A stretch of 64,000 nucleotides of DNA, taken from the NCBI GenBank assembly GCA_964514735.1, contig CAZETZ010000006.1:5467-69466 (forward strand), given 5' to 3'. A program made the translations under genes and the position numbers. This DNA comes from an uncultured Acidobacteriaceae bacterium. GTDB lineage: Bacteria > Acidobacteriota > Terriglobia > Terriglobales > Acidobacteriaceae. The notes under the pieces are model-generated. The model was given only the letters and a program-made list of their open reading frames with translations, made no database searches and was not told where the DNA came from. Positions 12,423 through 42,008 of this stretch are shown piece by piece; the first letter of the stretch is position 1; every line of letters starts with the position of its first letter.

Positions 12423-14456
12423 ATGGAAACAGTGCCAGTCACACTTGGGGCGGTGCTTCCGGGAATAACGGGAGTGCCGCCTTTTTTCGCCAAAGGGACA
12501 GTGGCGAATACGATTGGTGGCGCGGCAATGGGAGGATTTCTCCAGGCACTGCAAAGTATGGTCGGGCAAAGCAGCGCGGGCGCAATACCTGCAAAGGAGG
12601 CTGCGCCCGCGCAGCAGGATAAAGTTGAGCAGGATAACGATAAAGACACCGTCAAAGATAAGAAAAATCAAGAAGCGAAGCCTTCCCCTCCTTTGGGATT
12701 TCTTGCCGCCGCACTCCCTCCGCCGGCAACCGCACCATTGCTTCTTCAGCCAACTGCGGCTGGGGGCGCCAAACCAAGTGGAGTCGAGAGCGCTGTGGCG
12801 ACTTTGCCGCAACCCGATGGGACCCAACTGAAATCCGCTCCGCTCGAAGCACGGACCTTCGTAACCGCTCAGCCCGATGTGAATGATGGAGCGCAGCCGG
12901 CAACTCCGGCTGCATCTGCGTCATGGTTGCTTGCTGCGAGCGAAACTGGACAGCCAAAAGAGAAAAGCGGAGCACGCGGACCCGAGACCGTCGCCGCTCC
13001 TCCAGCGGTGATGGCAGACAAAAAGTTGGCCGCCCCCGAACCTCTCCTACCTCCGCGAAACCTGCCGGACGACCTTTGCCCGGTGCAGTTGGCCCATGGT
13101 CAGCAGGCAGAGAAGAGCGGCGATCCAGTGTCCGCAGAGACGATTCACAACCTGAAGGACCGCCATGATGACAGGGTCCAGGAAAAAGCGAGCGAGCGGG
13201 CCGCACCTCTCGCGACGCCCCCACTCGGTCCCCCCATCTCGAATCTCTTGACCGTGGCTGCTTCCGTGGTATCGAAGGAGAGGCCACACTCAACCACCGG
13301 ACCAGTGTCGCTTCCAGAAAAACCACTGTATGCCCCACCCGCTACGGAGGTCCCGGTTCACACTACCCCGGAGACGGAGCCAGAAGTCCGGCCACTTGCC
13401 GTCAGTCCTGCAAACCCGCAGGACCTGCAAGTTCAGCCCGTTTCAGACCCAGGCGGTTCGCAGCCAATGCAATCATTCCAGCTTCTGAGCGACAGCGCGC
13501 TGAGCACGCAAGCCGCGGAAACCTGGGAACTACAACCAAAGGGCCCGGCTTCGCGGAAAGCCGGAACAGATTCCATCTCCGCAAAGGCCCAGGGGCCGCG
13601 GGTTGATGCAGACCTGCCTGTGGTCAAGCTTCAGGCGCGTATTCCGCTTCCGGCACAAGTCTCGAACTTGCCTGCCGGCGATGGCGCTCTTTCAGTCCTT
13701 CCCCCAACACTGAAATTCGAGGCCCGGCCGCAGGCGATCGTCCGGCCATCGGGGCATGATGTACAGCACGAGATCAAACCCGACGTGCCGCCCCAAAAGA
13801 CAGCGCCCGCGCCCGATGGTCATGATGCCGCGACCCCTGCTGTCACGTCGCCGCCAGCTCACCTGGCGCCGCTCGAACCTGTTCCCATCGGAGAAAAAAA
13901 CGCGAGCATCCCGCCGCAAACAGTCCCGGCCCCAAGTGTGAGTGGGCCGGCGGCGGCCATGCCCTCTTCACCTTCTTCGCCGGAAAAATCACAGCTCCCA
14001 GTTTCTTCGCCATCCGACGCGCCCATCCCGCCACCTTTGCCGAGCGACCGAATTCAGGCCGCACGCCTGCTCGACCGCCTGGGCCAGGCGGAGATGCATC
14101 TGGGGATGCGCACCGAGACTTTCGGAAGCATTCAGGTGCATACCGTGATACGCGACAGCCAGGTGGGACTCACCATCGGTAGCGAGCGGGGCGATTTGAA
14201 AACGTATCTGGCGGCTGAGGTTTCGGGACTGGAAGCCAGCCTGCGCCAGCACGATTTGCAATTTCGCGACGTCCGCTTCGTGTCCAACAGCTTTTCTCCG
14301 GGCGGCAATCCCTACGGTGGCTCCGGCTCACCCTCGCAATCGTTTCAACAGGGGCGTTCTTTTCCCCAGGGGACCGCCCGGTTTGTTTTGCCGGAAACCA
14401 GGAATGAAACGGAAGCCGTCAATCACGAACCAGCGGGACTCAGCGTCCATGCGTGA
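12423..14456 (+). CDS. fliK: flagellar hook-length control protein FliK (long, Pro-rich)
   Basis: The central region is Pro/Ala/Ser-rich. The C-terminal Flg_hook-type domain reads MHLGMRTETFGSIQVHTVIRDSQVGLTIGSERGDLKTYLAAEVSGLEASLRQHDL. It sits before flgD-flgE. Confidence 0.8.
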   Translation: METVPVTLGAVLPGITGVPPFFAKGTVANTIGGAAMGGFLQALQSMVGQSSAGAIPAKEAAPAQQDKVEQDNDKDTVKDKKNQEAKPSPPLGFLAAALPPPATAPLLLQPTAAGGAKPSGVESAVATLPQPDGTQLKSAPLEARTFVTAQPDVNDGAQPATPAASASWLLAASETGQPKEKSGARGPETVAAPPAVMADKKLAAPEPLLPPRNLPDDLCPVQLAHGQQAEKSGDPVSAETIHNLKDRHDDRVQEKASERAAPLATPPLGPPISNLLTVAASVVSKERPHSTTGPVSLPEKPLYAPPATEVPVHTTPETEPEVRPLAVSPANPQDLQVQPVSDPGGSQPMQSFQLLSDSALSTQAAETWELQPKGPASRKAGTDSISAKAQGPRVDADLPVVKLQARIPLPAQVSNLPAGDGALSVLPPTLKFEARPQAIVRPSGHDVQHEIKPDVPPQKTAPAPDGHDAATPAVTSPPAHLAPLEPVPIGEKNASIPPQTVPAPSVSGPAAAMPSSPSSPEKSQLPVSSPSDAPIPPPLPSDRIQAARLLDRLGQAEMHLGMRTETFGSIQVHTVIRDSQVGLTIGSERGDLKTYLAAEVSGLEASLRQHDLQFRDVRFVSNSFSPGGNPYGGSGSPSQSFQQGRSFPQGTARFVLPETRNETEAVNHEPAGLSVHA

Positions 14457-14465
14457 GAGGGAACA

Positions 14466-14708
14466 ATGAACGTCAATCCGATCAACCATGCCAGCAGCGG
14501 TTCAAATCCAACGAACAGCAATAACTCGGCGGTGCAAACCGACAACATGTTTCTGACCCTGCTCACCGAGCAATTGAAAGCGCAAAGTCCGTTCGATCCG
14601 GTGGACCCCGCGCAATTTGTAGGACAGTTGGTGCAATTCAATACGCTGGACCAGTTAATTCAGATCCGCCAGCTTTTGCAGCAAGCCGCAGGCACGTCAA
14701 CCCAATAA
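14466..14708 (+). CDS. flgD: minimal FlgD (hook-cap protein, N-terminal domain only, 80 aa)
   Basis: FLTLLTEQLKAQSPFDPVDPAQFVGQLVQFNTLDQL matches the conserved FlgD N-terminal motif. The ORF stops right after it, 24 nt before flgE. Confidence 0.75.
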   Translation: MNVNPINHASSGSNPTNSNNSAVQTDNMFLTLLTEQLKAQSPFDPVDPAQFVGQLVQFNTLDQLIQIRQLLQQAAGTSTQ

Positions 14709-14732: not shown

Positions 14733-16262
14733 ATGCCAACTTTCTCGATCCCGCTGTCCGGGCTGACGACGGAATCAACCGCGTTGTCAGCCATTGCCAA
14801 CAATCTCGCCAACCTTAACACCACCGGATACAAAGATTCGGTGGTGCAGTTCCGCGACCTGTTTTATCAGAGCATTGGGACCAGCGGATCAGGCGACCCA
14901 ATTCAACTCGGGGCCGGGGCTGGTGTGGCCGCAACCTCGTCCTTGTTCACGCAAGGCAATGTCAACCCCACGGGTGTGGCCACCAATGTCGCGATTTCCG
15001 GCAGCGGTTTCTTTGTGACCCAGAATAACGGGGTGACCACCTACACCCGCGCGGGAGACTTTTCCGTCGACAAGAATGCCTTTCTGGTCACCGACGACGG
15101 ACAGCAGGTGCTGGGCTTCCCCTCGGTGAATGGCGCGATCACCACCGGGCAGGGGCTCAAGCCGCTGCAACTGGGGACAGGACAGATCAGCCCCCCGAAC
15201 CCCACCGGGAATGTGCAGATCAATACCAACCTGGATGCCACCGCCGCCGTGGGAGACACTTTCTCCACCCCCATCACCATCTTCGATTCCCTGGGCGCCA
15301 GCCACGTGCTGACATTTACCTTCACCAAGGCCGCGGCCAATGACTGGAACTACCGAATCTCCATCCCTCCCTCCGAACTCAATCCGGTGCTGGTTGGAGG
15401 GGTGCCGACCCCGCAAACCGGAATTCTGGCGACTGGGTCCTTGGGCTTTGACGGGAATGGGGTGTTGACCGCCACCGCCGCCGGCACAGCCGGCGCCCCC
15501 GCTTTCGCGGGGACCGGAAACGGGACCATGACTGGGGTCACGGCGGGAGGGGCGAGCGCGGCCCAGACCGTCACCATGACCGCAATCGATCCCACCCACT
15601 TCTCGGTCGTCGGTTCGGTCTCCGGTCCACTGGGCACGGCCACCGTGGGGACCCCGTTCACCTCCGGTCAAATCAATTTCACAATCAATGCCGGAGGCAC
15701 GGCCTTCGTCGCCGGAGACGCTTTCACCGTGGCCACAACCGCCGGCGCCTTGGGCAACGTCACTGCGATTCCGGTTAACGGATTTGCCGATGGCGCGGCC
15801 AACACGACTTTCAACTGGAATGTGCTCAACGGAACTGTGCCCGTAATCTCGCAGGTGGCGGCCGCAAGCAGCACCTCTTCCACCCAACAGGACGGGGCGG
15901 GGAGCGGATCGCTCGAGAGTTTTAATATCGGCAGCGATGGTCTAATCTCCGGAAGTTTCAGCAATGGCAAGACCGCCATTCTCGGGCAACTGGCGCTGGC
16001 CACATTTCCCAACGAACAAGGACTATTGCGCACCGGACGGAACGGATTCGCCGAGACCCTGGCTTCGGGACAAGCGGTGGTAGGTGCTCCCGGGACAGGC
16101 GGTCGTGGAACCTTGTCCGGTGGCGCGCTGGAGCTTTCCAACGTGGACATCGCCAGTGAGTTTGCCGCCATGATCGTCGCCCAACGCGGCTTCCAGGCCA
16201 ATGCGCGGGTGGTAACCACGTTCGATGAGGTGACCCAGGACACGATCAATTTGAAACGATAG
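14733..16262 (+). CDS. flgE: flagellar hook protein FlgE (with extra central module)
   Basis: The N-terminus reads LSAIANNLANLNTTGYK and the C-terminus LELSNVDIASEFAAMIVAQRGFQANARVVTTFDEV. A central Thr/Gly-rich insertion spans aa 251-337. Confidence 0.92.
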   Translation: MPTFSIPLSGLTTESTALSAIANNLANLNTTGYKDSVVQFRDLFYQSIGTSGSGDPIQLGAGAGVAATSSLFTQGNVNPTGVATNVAISGSGFFVTQNNGVTTYTRAGDFSVDKNAFLVTDDGQQVLGFPSVNGAITTGQGLKPLQLGTGQISPPNPTGNVQINTNLDATAAVGDTFSTPITIFDSLGASHVLTFTFTKAAANDWNYRISIPPSELNPVLVGGVPTPQTGILATGSLGFDGNGVLTATAAGTAGAPAFAGTGNGTMTGVTAGGASAAQTVTMTAIDPTHFSVVGSVSGPLGTATVGTPFTSGQINFTINAGGTAFVAGDAFTVATTAGALGNVTAIPVNGFADGAANTTFNWNVLNGTVPVISQVAAASSTSSTQQDGAGSGSLESFNIGSDGLISGSFSNGKTAILGQLALATFPNEQGLLRTGRNGFAETLASGQAVVGAPGTGGRGTLSGGALELSNVDIASEFAAMIVAQRGFQANARVVTTFDEVTQDTINLKR

Positions 16263-36028: not shown

Positions 36029-37647
36029 TTCGGCAGCGCTCCGAGTTCACTGGCGATCTGGCTCTGGATTAACGGCAACTGCTCCAGCGCAGCATTGACC
36101 TGGCTGAACTTGGTTATGAGTTGTTGCTGTGTGATGGCGAGCCGGTCTTCGAAATCGTTGATCTGCGCGCTCAATCCCTTGTCTGTGGTGGTGTTCTGGC
36201 TGAGTTCCAGGTTGATGAGCCCTTGGGTCGGATCGGTCAGGTTCGAAAGGTTGGCGCTAAGGGTCTGGGCGAACCCTTGGTTTGCCGGGTCCAGAGATTG
36301 AAAGAAGTTTTGGAAATCGGCGTTCTGCGCAATCGCCGGGTTGAGCTTGGTGGGATCCACGCTTAAGGTTCCGTCATTGGCAAGGTCTACGCCGATGGAT
36401 GCCAGGTTCACCAGCCCATTATTGCCGCTGATCGCATCAGTGATGCCGGTAAGCAGGCTCGACTGCAAAAGCCGCAGCGAACCGTTGGACTCTAGAGGCG
36501 GCGCGGAGGTGCCGTCCGAGGGCACGGAAAATTGTGCGTTGATGGACCCGATCAGTTGGTTGTAACTGGAGACAAAGTCGTTTACCGCCTGCGCGGCCTG
36601 GTTACTGTCGGGGGAGACATTGAGATGGATCTCTTCCTGCGAAGTATCACTGAGCAGATTGAGGGTGACACCAGGGACCACGCCAGTGACCGTATTACTG
36701 CTGCTGCTGACCGGAATGCCGTCGACGTTGAGGGACGCATTGGCCCCCGCGATCTGGTGGAACGTCAGCGGCGGGGCCGTGGTCGCGACCGTGAAGGTAT
36801 CGCCGGCTTGGAAATCTGTGTTACCGGCGGAGAGGGTGAAACCGATCTTTCCCGATGAAAAAGGCGTTCCGACGGTGGCGCTCCCCAAGGCTCCAGAGAC
36901 CGACCCGGTCACGGCGAAGTGAGTAGCGTCGGTTGCCGAGATGGTGATGGTCTCATTCGCGCTCGAAGTGCCTCCGCTCAGAGCTGAGATGGCGCCATCT
37001 CCCGTACCCGTATAAGAAGGAGTGCCGGCAGCGCCGCTCACCGTCAACGTAATGCTACCGGGTTGGCCGGTAGTATTGCTGACCAAGGCCAGACGCGAGC
37101 CGTTGGCATCATTAATGACGCTGGCGCTCACCCCAAGGTCATGGCTGTTGATATAAGAGGCCAGGCTGCTCAGGGTGTTGTTCCCAGGGCCGATGGTGAC
37201 CGAAGCGGCCTGGCCGTTGCCTACCTGCAAAGTAATCGTGCCCGGATTTAATGTGCCATTGGTCGGAACTACGTCGGTGTAGGCCGACGAGGTAGTGGCC
37301 AGATTGTGGATGACCACCACATGGTTCCCCGCCGTGGCAGTGGTCTGCGCGGTTGCGGCGAGCAAGCTTGGGTTCGATGAGACTGCGGCCTTGGCGGTAA
37401 GAGCGCCCAGCGGGTCCTTCAAAGCGCGGACCGTATCGGCAAAGCTACTCAGGTTGGCGTTGATCGCAGTCAACGCCGCGGCCTGGCTCGCTAGAGTGGA
37501 CCGTTGTCCTACCCAGACTTGTTCCGGGGCCCGGGCCGCGCCGATCAGCTGGCTGACGACGGAGTTGACGTCAATTCCCTGCCCCAGCCCTGAAGTGCTG
37601 GTTGAGTTATTCGGGCTTAGATTAAAACTGATTCCGGAACTTCCCAT
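36025..37647 (-). CDS. fliD: filament cap protein FliD
   Basis: The N-terminus reads GIDVNSVVSQLIGAARAPE and the C-terminus LSAQINDFEDRLAITQQQLITKFSQVNAALEQL. The IN motif reads LSSLASYINSHDLGVSASVINDANGSRLALVS. Confidence 0.9.
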   Translation of the reverse strand: MGSSGISFNLSPNNSTSTSGLGQGIDVNSVVSQLIGAARAPEQVWVGQRSTLASQAAALTAINANLSSFADTVRALKDPLGALTAKAAVSSNPSLLAATAQTTATAGNHVVVIHNLATTSSAYTDVVPTNGTLNPGTITLQVGNGQAASVTIGPGNNTLSSLASYINSHDLGVSASVINDANGSRLALVSNTTGQPGSITLTVSGAAGTPSYTGTGDGAISALSGGTSSANETITISATDATHFAVTGSVSGALGSATVGTPFSSGKIGFTLSAGNTDFQAGDTFTVATTAPPLTFHQIAGANASLNVDGIPVSSSSNTVTGVVPGVTLNLLSDTSQEEIHLNVSPDSNQAAQAVNDFVSSYNQLIGSINAQFSVPSDGTSAPPLESNGSLRLLQSSLLTGITDAISGNNGLVNLASIGVDLANDGTLSVDPTKLNPAIAQNADFQNFFQSLDPANQGFAQTLSANLSNLTDPTQGLINLELSQNTTTDKGLSAQINDFEDRLAITQQQLITKFSQVNAALEQLPLIQSQIASELGALPK

Positions 37648-38069: not shown

Positions 38070-39938
38070 CTACCGCAGAAGCGCAAGCACCTGCTGTTGA
38101 GTTTGGTTGGCCTGGGCCAGCGCGGAAATACCGGTCTGGTTCAGGATGGAGAACTTGGTCAAGTTCGCCACTTCTTGCGCGATGTCGGCGGAACGAATGC
38201 CGTCTTCGGCGGCGGTCAGGTTCTGCGTCTGGTTATTGATGACGTTGACGGCGCTCTGTAGGCGGTTGATGCCCGCGCCCAGGTCGCCGCGGATCGCGGC
38301 CACGTTGGCGACCGCCTGGTTGACATCGGTCAGCGCTTTTTTGGCGTTGGCGATGGCGGCTGTGTCATCCGCCCCAGTCAATGCGTCTCCCGCGATGCTG
38401 ACGTGGGAAGCCCCATGGTCGATGTTGGCTGCACCCAATCCACCAACTCCAACCGAGATGGTGCTGGCTCCGCCGCTGGTCGAATCGCTGAGGAAAATGT
38501 CAGTGGTGGTGGAACCGGTGGTCAGCGGATTGCTTAAAGTGCCGAGGACGGTTTCGGTGGTGGTGCTATCCACGGCGACATTGCCGTTCTTGGCCGGATC
38601 GACGATCACCAGGTGGCCATTGGTGGCGCCACTGGTACCGATATAAGCCTGCAAACCGGCAGCATCGGCAGGATTGTTGATGGCAGCCAGCAGGTCCCCG
38701 ATGGTCGATGCTCCGCCCGCGGTGAAGCTAAAGTTCTTGCCCCCGGCGTTGACACTAAAGATTGCGCCGTTGGTGAGGGCCGTAGCCGAGGTCAAGCTTC
38801 CCGTATTACCCACCAGTTGGTTGGTATCGGTAGTGGTACCGGCAATGGTCGGATTGGAAAACGATGTGGGTGCGCCCTGGACAGCCGCGCCCAGCACTGT
38901 GTCGGTGGTGCTTACGGTGAGATTGCCTCTGCCCTGCGGATCGGTGATCTGTAGAACACCGGCATTGAGGACAGCTTTCGCGCCCACAGTGGCGTCCGCG
39001 TTGATGGCGTTGACCAGGTCCTGCACGGTAGAACCCGACGCGTGAGTTTCGGTCGCCGCCGCGCCGGTGAGAATATCGCCGCCGGTAACCGCCAGGTTGC
39101 CATGCGAGGCGGTATCGATGATCTCAACCTGTCCGGTGGACAACAACTTCGCCTTGAGGCCGGTCAGCGCGCCGCCAGCGACTGTAAGGCCTGCCGCAGG
39201 GGTGCCGCCGTTAATGGCGTCGACCAGGTTTTGCACGGTGTTGGTGGTGCCGGCGCCGGTGGCAATTGTCGAGGTCAAGCTGCCATGCACGATGGTCAGG
39301 GTTTTGCTCGAGGTCAGAGTGGTGGCGCCGGTATACGGGCCGCCGCCGGAGCTGACCGTCGCATTGGGATTGGTGATGCCTGCCGTGGTGGCAGCGGTGA
39401 AGGTAAAAGTCGCCGTCCCGGAGGTGATGGTCAATTTCTGACCCACTGTCAAGGGGTCGGCCGCGCTTAAAGTCGTTCCATTGGGAGTGTCCTGTTCGTT
39501 CAAGTTCGGCGCCGTCGCGCTTTGGAACACAGCCGTACCGTTGAATGTGGTCTTGCCGCCAATGCGATCAATTTCAGCCTTGATGGCGGAAAATTCGGCA
39601 TCCAGCGCGCCACGTTGCGACTGCGAAACTGTACCGGTCGCGGCTTCCGTAGCCAGCGTGACTGCGCGGTTGAGCAGGGTCGTCACCTGGGCCAGCGCGC
39701 CGTCGGCCACTTGCAATTTGCCGACTCCGTCATTCGCGTTGCGGGAGGATTGTGTCAAAGCGGTAATGTTGGCGTGCAATCCATCCGCGATGGCCAGACC
39801 TGCGGCGTCGTCGGCTCCGGTGTTGATGCGCGATCCGGAAGAGAGACGGAAGAGGGTTTTCGATAGACCGGCACCTGTGATGGTCAGATTGTTCTGAGCA
39901 GCCAGGGACGGAATATTATTCAGGATACTAAGTGCCAT
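38070..39938 (-). CDS. fliC: flagellin (622 aa from ATG 39938)
   Basis: The N-terminus reads MALSILNNIPSLAAQNNLTIT...FRLSSGSRINTGADDAAGLAIADGL and the C-terminus NLTAAEDGIRSADIAQEVANLTKFSILNQTGISALAQANQTQQQVLALLR. Confidence 0.93.
   Translation of the reverse strand: MALSILNNIPSLAAQNNLTITGAGLSKTLFRLSSGSRINTGADDAAGLAIADGLHANITALTQSSRNANDGVGKLQVADGALAQVTTLLNRAVTLATEAATGTVSQSQRGALDAEFSAIKAEIDRIGGKTTFNGTAVFQSATAPNLNEQDTPNGTTLSAADPLTVGQKLTITSGTATFTFTAATTAGITNPNATVSSGGGPYTGATTLTSSKTLTIVHGSLTSTIATGAGTTNTVQNLVDAINGGTPAAGLTVAGGALTGLKAKLLSTGQVEIIDTASHGNLAVTGGDILTGAAATETHASGSTVQDLVNAINADATVGAKAVLNAGVLQITDPQGRGNLTVSTTDTVLGAAVQGAPTSFSNPTIAGTTTDTNQLVGNTGSLTSATALTNGAIFSVNAGGKNFSFTAGGASTIGDLLAAINNPADAAGLQAYIGTSGATNGHLVIVDPAKNGNVAVDSTTTETVLGTLSNPLTTGSTTTDIFLSDSTSGGASTISVGVGGLGAANIDHGASHVSIAGDALTGADDTAAIANAKKALTDVNQAVANVAAIRGDLGAGINRLQSAVNVINNQTQNLTAAEDGIRSADIAQEVANLTKFSILNQTGISALAQANQTQQQVLALLR
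38098..38291. repeat. 194-nt block matching 40177-40370 (3' ends of the two flagellin genes)
   Basis: The same sequence is read at an offset of 2079 nt. The antisense ORF translations (38107.. and 40186..) are identical for 62 codons. Confidence 0.85.
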
Positions 39939-40051
39939 TAGAGTTGCTCCTTGTTGGGGTTTGGTCCCGTCTCCTAGAACCCGCCTCCACAATCACTGGG
40001 GGAGCTGTTCTTTCTTGCCTACACGGAACCTTGCTTTGCCCATCACCACAG

Positions 40052-40148: not shown

Positions 40149-42008
40149 TCATCGCAGTAATGCCAGAACCTGCTGCTGAGTTTGGTTGGCCTGGGCCAGC
40201 GCGGAAATACCGGTCTGGTTCAGGATGGAGAACTTGGTCAAGTTCGCCACTTCTTGCGCGATGTCGGCGGAACGAATGCCGTCTTCGGCGGCGGTCAGGT
40301 TCTGCGTCTGGTTATTGATGACGTTGACGGCGCTCTGTAGGCGGTTGATGCCCGCGCCCAGGTCGCCGCGAATGGCGGCGATGTTGGCGACCGCCTGGTT
40401 CACATCGGTCAGCGCTTTTTTGGCGTTGGCGATCGATGCGGCGTCGTCGGCGCCCACCAGCGAATCCCCAGCGATGCTGACGTGGGAAGCTCCGTGGTCC
40501 AGATTGGCGGAACTCAGTCCGGGAACACCGACTGAAATCGTGCTGGCGCCGCCGGCCGTGGAGTCACTGAGGAAAATGTCAGTGGTCGCGGAACCGTTTG
40601 TGAGCGGATTACTCACCGTTCCAAATATGGTTTCGGTGGTTGTGCCGTCAATGGCCAGATTGCCATTCTTGCCAGGGTCAACAATAACCAGTTTTCCATT
40701 GGAGGAGCCGATCGTGCCGATATAAGCCTGCAACCCAGCCGGATCGGCGGGATTGTTAATGGCGGCAAGCAGGTCTCCTAAGGTCGAAGTGGGCCCGGCG
40801 GTGAAAGTGAACTTCTTGCCGCCCGCGTTGAAGCTGGTGATCGCGCCATTCGTAAGTGCGGTCCCTGAGGTCAGACCCGTAGCATTCCCCACCAGTTGAT
40901 TGACATCGGTGGTCGTACCGGAACTGGTTGGGTTGGTGAATGGAGTTGGAGCACCTTGGACCGCAGCTCCCAGCGCGGCGTCGGTAGTGCTGACGGTCAG
41001 GTTGCCGCGGCCCTGGGGGTCGGTAATTTTCAGGGCGCCGCCGGTCAGAACTGCCTTGGCCCCGACCACGGTGTCGGCGTTGATGGCGTTGATTAGATCT
41101 TGCACGGTTGAGGTGGCCGGCGAGTTGTTGAAGCTGGTGGTGCCGGCATTAATAATGTTGAAGCCGGTCACCGTGAGGTTTCCGCTCGCGCCCGTGTCCA
41201 CGATTTGAATTTGCCCACCCACCAGCGAGGCCTTCAGACCGGTGGTGGCGCCGGTCGTGGTGATTCCGGCGACGGTGGCGCCATTGATGGCGTTGATCAG
41301 GTCCTGGACCGTGTTCGTGGTGCCTGCGCCGGTGGCAAAGGTAGTGGTGACGCCGCCGCGCGCTACCGTCAGAGTCTTACTCGAGACCAGGGTGCCGGTT
41401 GGGGTCAATGCCGCGCCGGCGCTGATGGCGGAATTCGGGTTGATGCCTGTCCCCGTGGCGGCGGTGAAAGTAAAAGTCGAGGCCCCGGAAGTAATGGTGG
41501 TCTTCTGGCCGACTGTCAGCGGATCACTCGGACTCAGGTTCGTCACCGCGGCAGGACTGTCCTGCTCATTGAGGTTGGGCGCGGTGGCGCTCACAAATAC
41601 CGCCGTGCCGTTGAAGGTGGTTTTGCCGCCAATGCGGTCGATTTCCGCCTTGATGGCGGAAAACTCGGCGTCGAGTGCCTCGCGCTGGGACTGCGAAACG
41701 GTCCCGGTTGCGGCTTCAGTCGCCAGGGTGATGGCCCGGTCCAGCAACGTCGTAACTTGCCCGAGAGCGCCGTCGGCAACTTGCAGCTTACCCACGCCGT
41801 CATTGGCGTTGCGCGACGACTGAGTCAGGGCGGTGATGTTGGCGTGCAAGCCGTCCGCGATGGCCAGACCGGCGGCGTCATCGGCTCCGGTATTAATGCG
41901 TGAGCCGGAAGAGAGGCGGAATAGGGTCTTTTGCAAACCAGCCTGTGTGATGGTCAGGTTGTTCTGCGCGGCCAGGGATGGGATATTGTTCAGAATGCTT
42001 AATGACAT
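40149..42008 (-). CDS. fliC: flagellin (619 aa), tandem paralogue
   Basis: The N-terminus reads MSLSILNNIPSLAAQNNLTITQAGLQKTLFRLSSGSRINTGADDAAGLAIADGL. The C-terminal 60 aa or so are the same as in the first copy. Confidence 0.93.
   Translation of the reverse strand: MSLSILNNIPSLAAQNNLTITQAGLQKTLFRLSSGSRINTGADDAAGLAIADGLHANITALTQSSRNANDGVGKLQVADGALGQVTTLLDRAITLATEAATGTVSQSQREALDAEFSAIKAEIDRIGGKTTFNGTAVFVSATAPNLNEQDSPAAVTNLSPSDPLTVGQKTTITSGASTFTFTAATGTGINPNSAISAGAALTPTGTLVSSKTLTVARGGVTTTFATGAGTTNTVQDLINAINGATVAGITTTGATTGLKASLVGGQIQIVDTGASGNLTVTGFNIINAGTTSFNNSPATSTVQDLINAINADTVVGAKAVLTGGALKITDPQGRGNLTVSTTDAALGAAVQGAPTPFTNPTSSGTTTDVNQLVGNATGLTSGTALTNGAITSFNAGGKKFTFTAGPTSTLGDLLAAINNPADPAGLQAYIGTIGSSNGKLVIVDPGKNGNLAIDGTTTETIFGTVSNPLTNGSATTDIFLSDSTAGGASTISVGVPGLSSANLDHGASHVSIAGDSLVGADDAASIANAKKALTDVNQAVANIAAIRGDLGAGINRLQSAVNVINNQTQNLTAAEDGIRSADIAQEVANLTKFSILNQTGISALAQANQTQQQVLALLR
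40177..40370. repeat. second copy of the 194-nt identical flagellin 3' block
   Basis: See 38098-38291. Confidence 0.85.

Follow-up and report, generated by a model that had tools for sequence, protein, structure and literature searches.

The flagellar hook protein FlgE and the filament cap protein FliD of a soil acidobacterium, encoded in the window (the whole 64,000-nucleotide stretch of DNA that was analysed), share an 87-residue module, the core of an insert of ~85-90 residues that very likely belongs to a large, mostly phage-borne family of beta-sandwich inserts. Members of this family are self-contained inserts, present singly or in tandem, in unrelated host proteins. Both flagellar copies occur in many genomes of Terriglobia (Acidobacteriota), and the closest named relatives of the window are Terriglobales MAGs.

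Module copies and their insertion sites

The positions of the two host genes and of the two module copies are listed in Table 1. Translation of the FlgE core and of the FliD core (36775-37035, minus strand) gave 87 residues each and reproduced exactly the two peptides quoted in an earlier note on this DNA. A recount also agreed with its 52 identical positions out of 87 in an ungapped comparison of FlgE residues 251-337 with FliD residues 205-291. The core borders given there stood, while the limits defined by indels in related proteins are slightly wider.

Table 1. Host genes and module copies in the window.
Feature	Position	Strand	Basis
flgE, flagellar hook protein, 509 aa	14733..16262	+	Pfam, PDB sequence match, gene neighbours
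fliD, filament cap protein, 540 aa	36025..37647	-	Pfam, PDB sequence matches, gene neighbours
FlgE module copy, aa 251-341	15483..15755	+	Indel borders; core = 15483-15743
FliD module copy, aa ~203-291	36775..37041	-	Indel borders

In a BLASTP comparison of the full-length proteins with composition-based statistics, FlgE 243-340 aligned to FliD 197-294 with 56 of 98 residues identical and no gaps (E 9e-29), and only noise was found outside of the module. The earlier note had proposed a shuffling test. The observed local alignment score of 282 was about 29 SD above that of 2,000 composition-preserving shuffles (mean 50, SD 8, maximum 88), and the same kind of shuffling gave 10.7 +/- 2.9 ungapped identities (maximum 22) against the 52 observed. 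Both copies are about 60% T/S/G/A and nearly uncharged, a composition in favour of a chance likeness between two Thr/Ser/Gly/Ala-rich variable regions, but the probability of this explanation is negligible, as it is refuted by the composition-adjusted E value and by the distance from the shuffles. A family HMM also recovers hundreds of homologues that share sequence motifs, and the fold predicted for the module is a confident one. No third copy was found in the window by tblastn or by the family HMM run with --max over all six frames, in agreement with the earlier observation that the module is not seen in the two flagellins, FlgK, FlgL, or FliK.

The hook protein matches PF00460 (Flg_bb_rod), PF22692 (LlgE_F_G_D1), PF07559 (FlgE_D2), and PF06429 (Flg_bbr_C) in Pfam, all above cutoff, as well as TIGR03506 in NCBIfam (298 bits). 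Its top PDB sequence match is Salmonella FlgE (E 8e-46), and its gene lies between flgD on one side and fliN/O/P on the other. Residues 3-237 align to residues 2-243 of the Salmonella protein and residues 343-508 to residues 246-403, therefore about 105 extra residues are located within D2, at a site that is bridged by residues ~243-246 in Salmonella. Compared with P0174, a protein of 420 aa that is 87% identical elsewhere, the FlgE insert is a clean indel of 91 codons (273 nt). Microhomology at the junctions of this indel was not revealed, as the DNA alignment is too diverged (78.5% identity). A 25-nt imperfect direct repeat is present at the module borders, which may be explained by the similar Ala/Gly/Thr linkers found there.

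FliD was identified by PF02465 (FliD_N, 62 bits) and PF07195 (FliD_C, 142 bits), by PDB sequence matches to the P. aeruginosa and E. coli proteins, and by the flanking genes fliS, flaG, and two flagellin genes. In this case, the insertion lies where the D3 region ends and the FliD_C region begins. The P. aeruginosa and E. coli FliD proteins align on both sides of residues ~213-295, with some 8-10 residues between, and a clean indel is evident against module-less FliD proteins of 452-465 aa (P0303, P0306, P0308, P0310). One further FliD (P0359) has a duplicated D3-like segment at the module's site, with the module itself missing, and the site therefore tolerates inserts. The module had previously been distinguished from the standard Flagellin_IN motif, and it indeed has no match to PF07196. 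This Pfam model also had no match at E<=1 on the FliD of the window; Flagellin_IN is annotated upstream of the module in relatives.

The family HMM, which has the copies from the window among its seed sequences, matched the FlgE copy with an E value of 4.6e-30 and the FliD copy with one of 2.5e-28. Among the best 120 FlgE homologues, one copy was found in 110, none in eight (413-421 aa), and two tandem copies in two (594 and 605 aa). For FliD, 31 of the best 120 homologues carry one copy (538-556 aa when full length) and 89 carry none. Copy number in close relatives is thus 0, 1, or 2 for FlgE and 0 or 1 for FliD. The earlier suggestion of a discrete cassette is borne out by these clean presence/absence patterns and by the lack of a counterpart in the solved FlgE and FliD structures, and alignment of orthologues places the module as an insertion outside the conserved core of both protein families. 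On one contig of 64.9 kb (ERZ25039539:contig_43974), a module-less FlgE is encoded together with a module-bearing FliD, which indicates that the two copies are gained or lost independently. The module may be dispensable, to judge only from the natural relatives with no copy, and the deletion and duplication variants provided by nature could be used for questions of hook mechanics, cap function, and the attachment of soil bacteria.

A scan of one genome per species returned 31 loci (25 FlgE and 6 FliD), all from Acidobacteriota, in MAGs labelled as Terriglobales, Acidobacteriaceae, Ca. Sulfotelmatobacter, and Ca. Solibacter. Two of these MAGs have both copies, and in DATIYF010000012 one contig holds the two, separated by ~22 kb, an arrangement like that of the window. 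Based on exact peptide patterns, the scan is incomplete and missed, for example, the FliD of CAVYRG010000001, which carries the module.

The phage-borne family and its fold

To identify carriers of the module, the earlier note had proposed BLASTP and HMMER searches; it had missed the link to phages, which became evident in the profile search of a mostly phage-borne family. A word-indexed search with the alignment of the two copies gave eight fragmentary matches and missed the proteins of the window itself, and it was replaced by a profile search that covered 1.84 billion cluster representatives exhaustively. This search gave 2,308 matches at E<=1e-3, of which 796 also passed E<=1e-10. The motifs G.GNGT, ATVGTP[FY], and FTI.AG.T.F..GD.FT are characteristic of the family, and many members carry 2-9 copies of the module, often in tandem.

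Among the best 150 of the 2,308 matches, FliD proteins are the sole flagellar representatives, and the remaining matches make up four groups of host proteins. The first comprises gpD-type head-decoration proteins with modules inside the HDPD/phrog_49 match; in P0009, for example, the HDPD profile match is split at 2-507, with the module within. The second comprises tail sheath proteins (phrog_23/10581, PF04984), and the third comprises long tail-fibre-like proteins. The fourth group consists of proteins of 400-545 aa that match phrog_687, annotated as "structural protein", in which the module occupies residues ~26-111 after an N-terminal helix. Cultured phages that carry the module are Stenotrophomonas phages DLP_3, DLP_5, Summit, StM171, and Suso, Xanthomonas phage HXX_Dennis, Ralstonia phage RsoM2USA, and Pseudomonas phage Ab19. 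In the two phages inspected, HXX_Dennis and Summit, the gene with the module directly follows the tape-measure gene. The same position is occupied by the gene for P0078, the closest non-flagellar copy, which lies within a row of phage tail genes. A scan of IMG/VR found 20 viral loci with the module and 0 flagellar loci.

Searched alone, the module had nothing above threshold in Pfam, NCBIfam, or PHROGs, with only sub-threshold matches to Wzc_N and VCBS, and no Pfam model matched over the module in the family members that were scanned. Ig-like, FN3, and Big models of Pfam had no match at threshold, with sub-threshold matches to MG4, Cadherin, and Big_8 on family members, and there was no match at threshold to carbohydrate-binding families of Pfam or NCBIfam. 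A model of the domain would be of value for annotation, as more than 2,300 clusters match the profile and the family is without a Pfam or NCBIfam model.

Structure prediction, which had also been proposed earlier, gave a confident beta-sandwich that is predicted to fold alone. The isolated module was modelled by AlphaFold from a 75-sequence alignment as an all-beta domain of seven strands (pLDDT 93, pTM 0.81), and within a model of full-length FlgE its pLDDT was 84-97. The pTM of that whole model was 0.39, which makes the orientation of its domains unreliable, and none is claimed here. The positions conserved in the module correspond to the fold core of the whole family, with none beyond it. 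In BFVD, the best Foldseek match was a viral protein of 523 aa (TMq 0.82 at 50% identity), and another match was to a tail sheath protein. In the PDB, the best match was D2 of X. campestris FlgL, xcFlgL (5ziz_A; E 2e-4, TMq 0.64, rmsd 2.8, 91 columns), with further matches to the periplasmic domain of Wzc, Legionella FlgL, and Salmonella FlgK. The best PDB sequence found with the family profile was also xcFlgL (residues 155-238; hmmsearch E 0.026), with the NTG.G and GD.F motifs in register, and hhalign comparison of the family with xcFlgL D2 gave a probability of 51% and an E value of 1.5e-4. Sequence identity between the module and FlgL D2 is 16-19%. Since this similarity is marginal, homology of the module with the D2 domain of FlgL and FlgK is only probable.

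According to Hong et al. (PMC6155364), xcFlgL D2 is a variable accessory beta-sandwich that is shared with FlgK, faces outward in a model of the FlgL-flagellin assembly, and was proposed to reinforce the junction. Like D2 of FlgL (X. campestris, 5ziz) and FlgK (B. pseudomallei), the module is an accessory beta-sandwich of ~80-90 residues inserted in an axial protein, and, like that domain, it is common to two axial proteins and missing from orthologues elsewhere. The hosts are different, being the hook and cap proteins here and junction proteins there, and so is the context, which is a helical D1 in FlgL and FlgK but the beta D2 of FlgE and the FliD head for the module. A connection to phages is not mentioned in the passages of that report considered here.

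Other lineage-specific extra domains are D3-D4 of Campylobacter and Helicobacter FlgE and D4 of C. jejuni FliD, which are thought to stabilise or to mediate adherence, with function mostly unknown (PMC7316729). These resemble the module in being outer domains added to a conserved D0-D1-D2 scaffold, but they have no sequence relation to it and are not known to occur in both the hook and the cap protein, or in phages. The insert in Campylobacter FlgE is also located elsewhere (between residues ~185 and ~175-226 of the query), and the module site has ~13 residues in that protein. Extra outer domains on axial proteins (PMC6155364, PMC7316729) and a D2 common to FlgL and FlgK (PMC6155364) were already known. 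Literature searches turned up no paper on the presence of this module in the two flagellar proteins, and none on its link to phages.

Foldseek also matches the module to the periplasmic beta domain of Wzc, a tyrosine kinase co-polymerase (PF23607; 7nhs), with E values of ~1e-2 and TMq of 0.5-0.6, although the biological context is unrelated. Repeated matches of 14-23 bits to PF23607 were found on family members, under the gathering score of 27 bits; the FliD copy, with 16-20 bits, was likewise below it, and the FlgE copy had no match.

Phage virions display accessory Ig-like domains, such as Hoc of T4, and Fraser and colleagues reportedly described Ig-like domains on phage virions in 2006. Members of the present family are similar in that they are small beta domains on heads, sheaths, and tail proteins, often tandem, probably dispensable, and prone to shuffling. 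Unlike the Ig-like domains, the module is inserted inside host domains (HDPD, for example) rather than appended to them, and is also found in flagellar proteins. The origin of the outer domains of axial proteins is seldom traceable, and here a cassette can be followed through three settings, namely two axial proteins with variants of 0, 1, or 2 copies, a very large domain family on phage heads, sheaths, and tail tips, and, at the level of the fold, D2 of FlgL and FlgK. This suggests that genes for small surface domains able to fold by themselves have moved between phage virions and proteins whose folding has to follow type III export.

Age and relationship of the copies

The flgE and fliD genes belong to one flagellar cluster and are separated by 21 kb, an arrangement that could favour recent gene conversion, recent transfer between the two genes, or a chimeric assembly of this genome. 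The DNA of the two module copies makes such an event hardly credible, as it is only 64% identical, with 39% identity at third codon positions, and the same codon is used at 22 of the 52 identical residues. By the Nei-Gojobori method, pS was 0.68, dS ~1.8 (near saturation), dN 0.28, and dN/dS ~0.15. The third-position divergence and these values indicate that the copies are old and under purifying selection, and the near-saturated synonymous sites rule out a recent duplication or an assembly artefact. Both copies are furthermore found in many independent genomes and metagenomes. In addition, the FlgE copy of the window is 70% identical to some foreign FliD copies and 61% identical to its own FliD copy, which argues against concerted evolution as well as against recent conversion.

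Among FlgE orthologues, the module is conserved to the same extent as its surroundings (68%, compared with 64-68% for D1 and D2). Orthologous module copies follow their host genes, being 79-81% identical between the window and its closest relatives, and pairs of FlgE and FliD copies within one genome are 60-73% identical. Mean identity of the module is 68% between FlgE copies, 71% between FliD copies, 60% between FlgE and FliD copies, and 39-40% between flagellar and phage copies. The P0078 group and P0083 are closer and reach 65-67% identity to the flagellar copies, and both flagellar copies fall in one sub-lineage of the family with a group of phage tail proteins.

In the earlier note, the module was taken to have been exchanged between the hook and cap proteins. 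The comparison lends this no particular support, since the copies in a group of phage tail proteins are about as similar and a clade made up exclusively of FlgE and FliD copies was recovered in 0-2 of 100 bootstraps. Support for monophyly of the flagellar, FlgE, or FliD copies was likewise 0-2 of 100, from 84 alignment columns. A neighbour-joining tree with a single flagellar clade, sister to the phrog_687 proteins, was dropped after bootstrapping. Because the trees are without resolution, a direct exchange between FlgE and FliD, by one acquisition and a later copy within the genome in either direction, and two acquisitions from a phage pool are inseparable. The far greater diversity of the phage-borne copies, which is the only basis for a direction, would suggest movement from phage to flagellum.

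Possible role on the hook and cap

D2 of FlgE is the outermost domain of the hook in Salmonella, and D2-D3 of FliD form the head of the cap. An insert at either site should therefore face outward, and surface exposure of the module seems likely from the sites of insertion. Axial proteins pass through the flagellar type III channel in unfolded form, and the module therefore has to fold outside the cell without help.

The module is an old, movable accessory domain, and we consider it fairly probable that it faces outward on the hook and cap and is structural or decorative in nature; its specific role as a structural or decorative outer domain is more finely balanced, with about equal weight for and against. 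A role of this kind is favoured by the near-uncharged composition, rich in T/S/G/A, and by the coincidence of the conserved positions with the fold core. In this scenario, one sub-lineage of the family would have been grafted long ago into a loop of FlgE D2 in Terriglobia and, also long ago, into the head of FliD at its D3/D2 junction. Each copy would since have been passed on together with its host gene, maintained by purifying selection and now and then lost, gained, or duplicated in tandem. After type III export of FlgE and FliD, the module may fold autonomously and add an outermost, near-uncharged layer rich in Thr/Ser/Gly/Ala to the hook and the cap plate, perhaps providing extra lateral contacts or surface shielding outside of the assembly core. 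Such a role would be comparable to that of D2 in FlgL and FlgK and of the additional domains that FlgE and FliD have in epsilon-proteobacteria. However, positions that are conserved throughout the family say nothing of a role specific to the flagellum, and the same data would be compatible with a role in adhesion or one related to phages. Adhesion, glycosylation, and contact with a sheath, all suggested in the earlier note, would be conceivable. N-glycosylation at GNGT, the sole N-x-T sequon of the family motif, was also considered and was set aside, as FliD has GDGA.

The module could instead be an adhesin or glycan-binding domain with weak binding to polysaccharides or surfaces, like the Ig-like domains of phages, in which case the hook and the flagellar tip would serve as points of attachment. 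The family is found on exposed parts of phages (head-decoration, sheath, and tail tip proteins), its tandem arrays of 2-9 copies are reminiscent of avidity-type binders, and the FliD copy is located in the cap head. D4 of C. jejuni FliD, also lineage-specific, has been postulated as the basis of heparin binding (PMC7316729). We nevertheless regard this role as unlikely, given 0 matches at threshold to carbohydrate-binding or Ig families, the absence of a conserved patch outside the fold core, and the hook being a poor location for an adhesin.

Quite improbable is an interaction with phages, in which the flagellar copies would provide or imitate a docking site, by homotypic contact, for phages with this domain in a tail protein, or would act as a decoy captured from a prophage. 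The case is wholly circumstantial, and the domain is also found in head-decoration and sheath proteins, which have no contact with a receptor. Only a very slight chance is given to the more specific proposal of a flagellum-phage recognition surface, with homotypic docking of the tail tips of acidobacterial phages on the hook and cap, or a captured decoy; if true, flagellotropic phages and the flagellum would be engaged in an arms race of which the cassette is a sign. Some observations are consistent with a contact of this kind. The nearest non-flagellar copies, those with 65-67% identity, are part of a tail protein whose gene comes immediately after that of the tape measure, and the tail module of Stenotrophomonas phage Summit has an annotation based on similarity to phage Chi, which is flagellotropic. 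The contig that encodes P0078 is similar in GC content to the window, with 58.8% compared with 60.2%.

Copy number and insertion sites of the module in relatives

Two FlgE homologues, P0170 (594 aa) and P0212 (605 aa), carry two tandem copies of the module at the same site in domain D2. The tandem copies are 64% and 45% identical to each other within P0170 and P0212, respectively, so the duplications are old. In a 588-aa FliD homologue (P0359), a duplicated D3/Flagellin_IN-like segment replaces the module at the exact FliD insertion site, which thus seems to be a hot spot permissive for inserts. A close relative (ena:ERZ25039539:contig_43974; loci L035 and L037), whose FlgE and FliD are 87% and 78% identical to those of the window, encodes a FliD with the module and a FlgE without it. 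The module is not present in either of the two large flagellins of the window, each of which has a center of about 400 aa between Flagellin_N and Flagellin_C that lacks a Pfam match.

Borders of the FlgE module and neighboring genes

An imperfect direct repeat lies at both borders of the FlgE module, where its copies encode TAAGTAGA and TVATTAGA. This repeat may reflect periodicity of the linkers, act as a substrate for recombination, or have arisen by chance. Three long antisense ORFs overlapping flgE had no homology support; ORFs of this kind are commonly seen in coding DNA that is rich in GC.

The FlgD of the window lacks the C-terminal beta domains that are usual for this protein, and the same 80-aa gene is also found before flgE in relatives (L001 and L035). 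The Flg_hook match of the FliK-like protein scored 24.4 bits, under the Pfam cutoff.

Features of the flgE region, the flagellins and the phage Summit tail gene (window positions unless an accession is given)
Feature	Position	Strand	Remarks
FliK-like protein, proline-rich	12423-14456	+	677 aa; Flg_hook, sub-cutoff
FlgD	14466-14708	+	only 80 aa; PF03963 N-terminal region alone
Antisense ORF	14889-15887	-	overlaps flgE
Antisense ORF	15350-15661	-	overlaps flgE
Antisense ORF	15668-16249	-	overlaps flgE
25-nt direct repeat	15473-15497 and 15725-15749		76% identity
Large flagellin	38070-39992	-	640 aa; Flagellin_N + Flagellin_C
Large flagellin	40149-42008	-	619 aa; Flagellin_N + Flagellin_C
Tail gene, Stenotrophomonas phage Summit (L034)	MZ326862.1 14927-16510		module-bearing

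Module sequences in a PEP-CTERM protein and in phage Summit

The first ~26 residues of P0007, a 117-aa PEP-CTERM protein encoded on a 1-kb metagenome contig, are near-identical to the module core (SGSLGTATVGTPFTSGQINFTLNAG). A chimeric assembly or a fragment of the domain may account for this protein. In Stenotrophomonas phage Summit, the module is borne by a tail gene, and the remaining genes of the Summit tail module take their annotations from similarity to phage Chi, which is flagellotropic.
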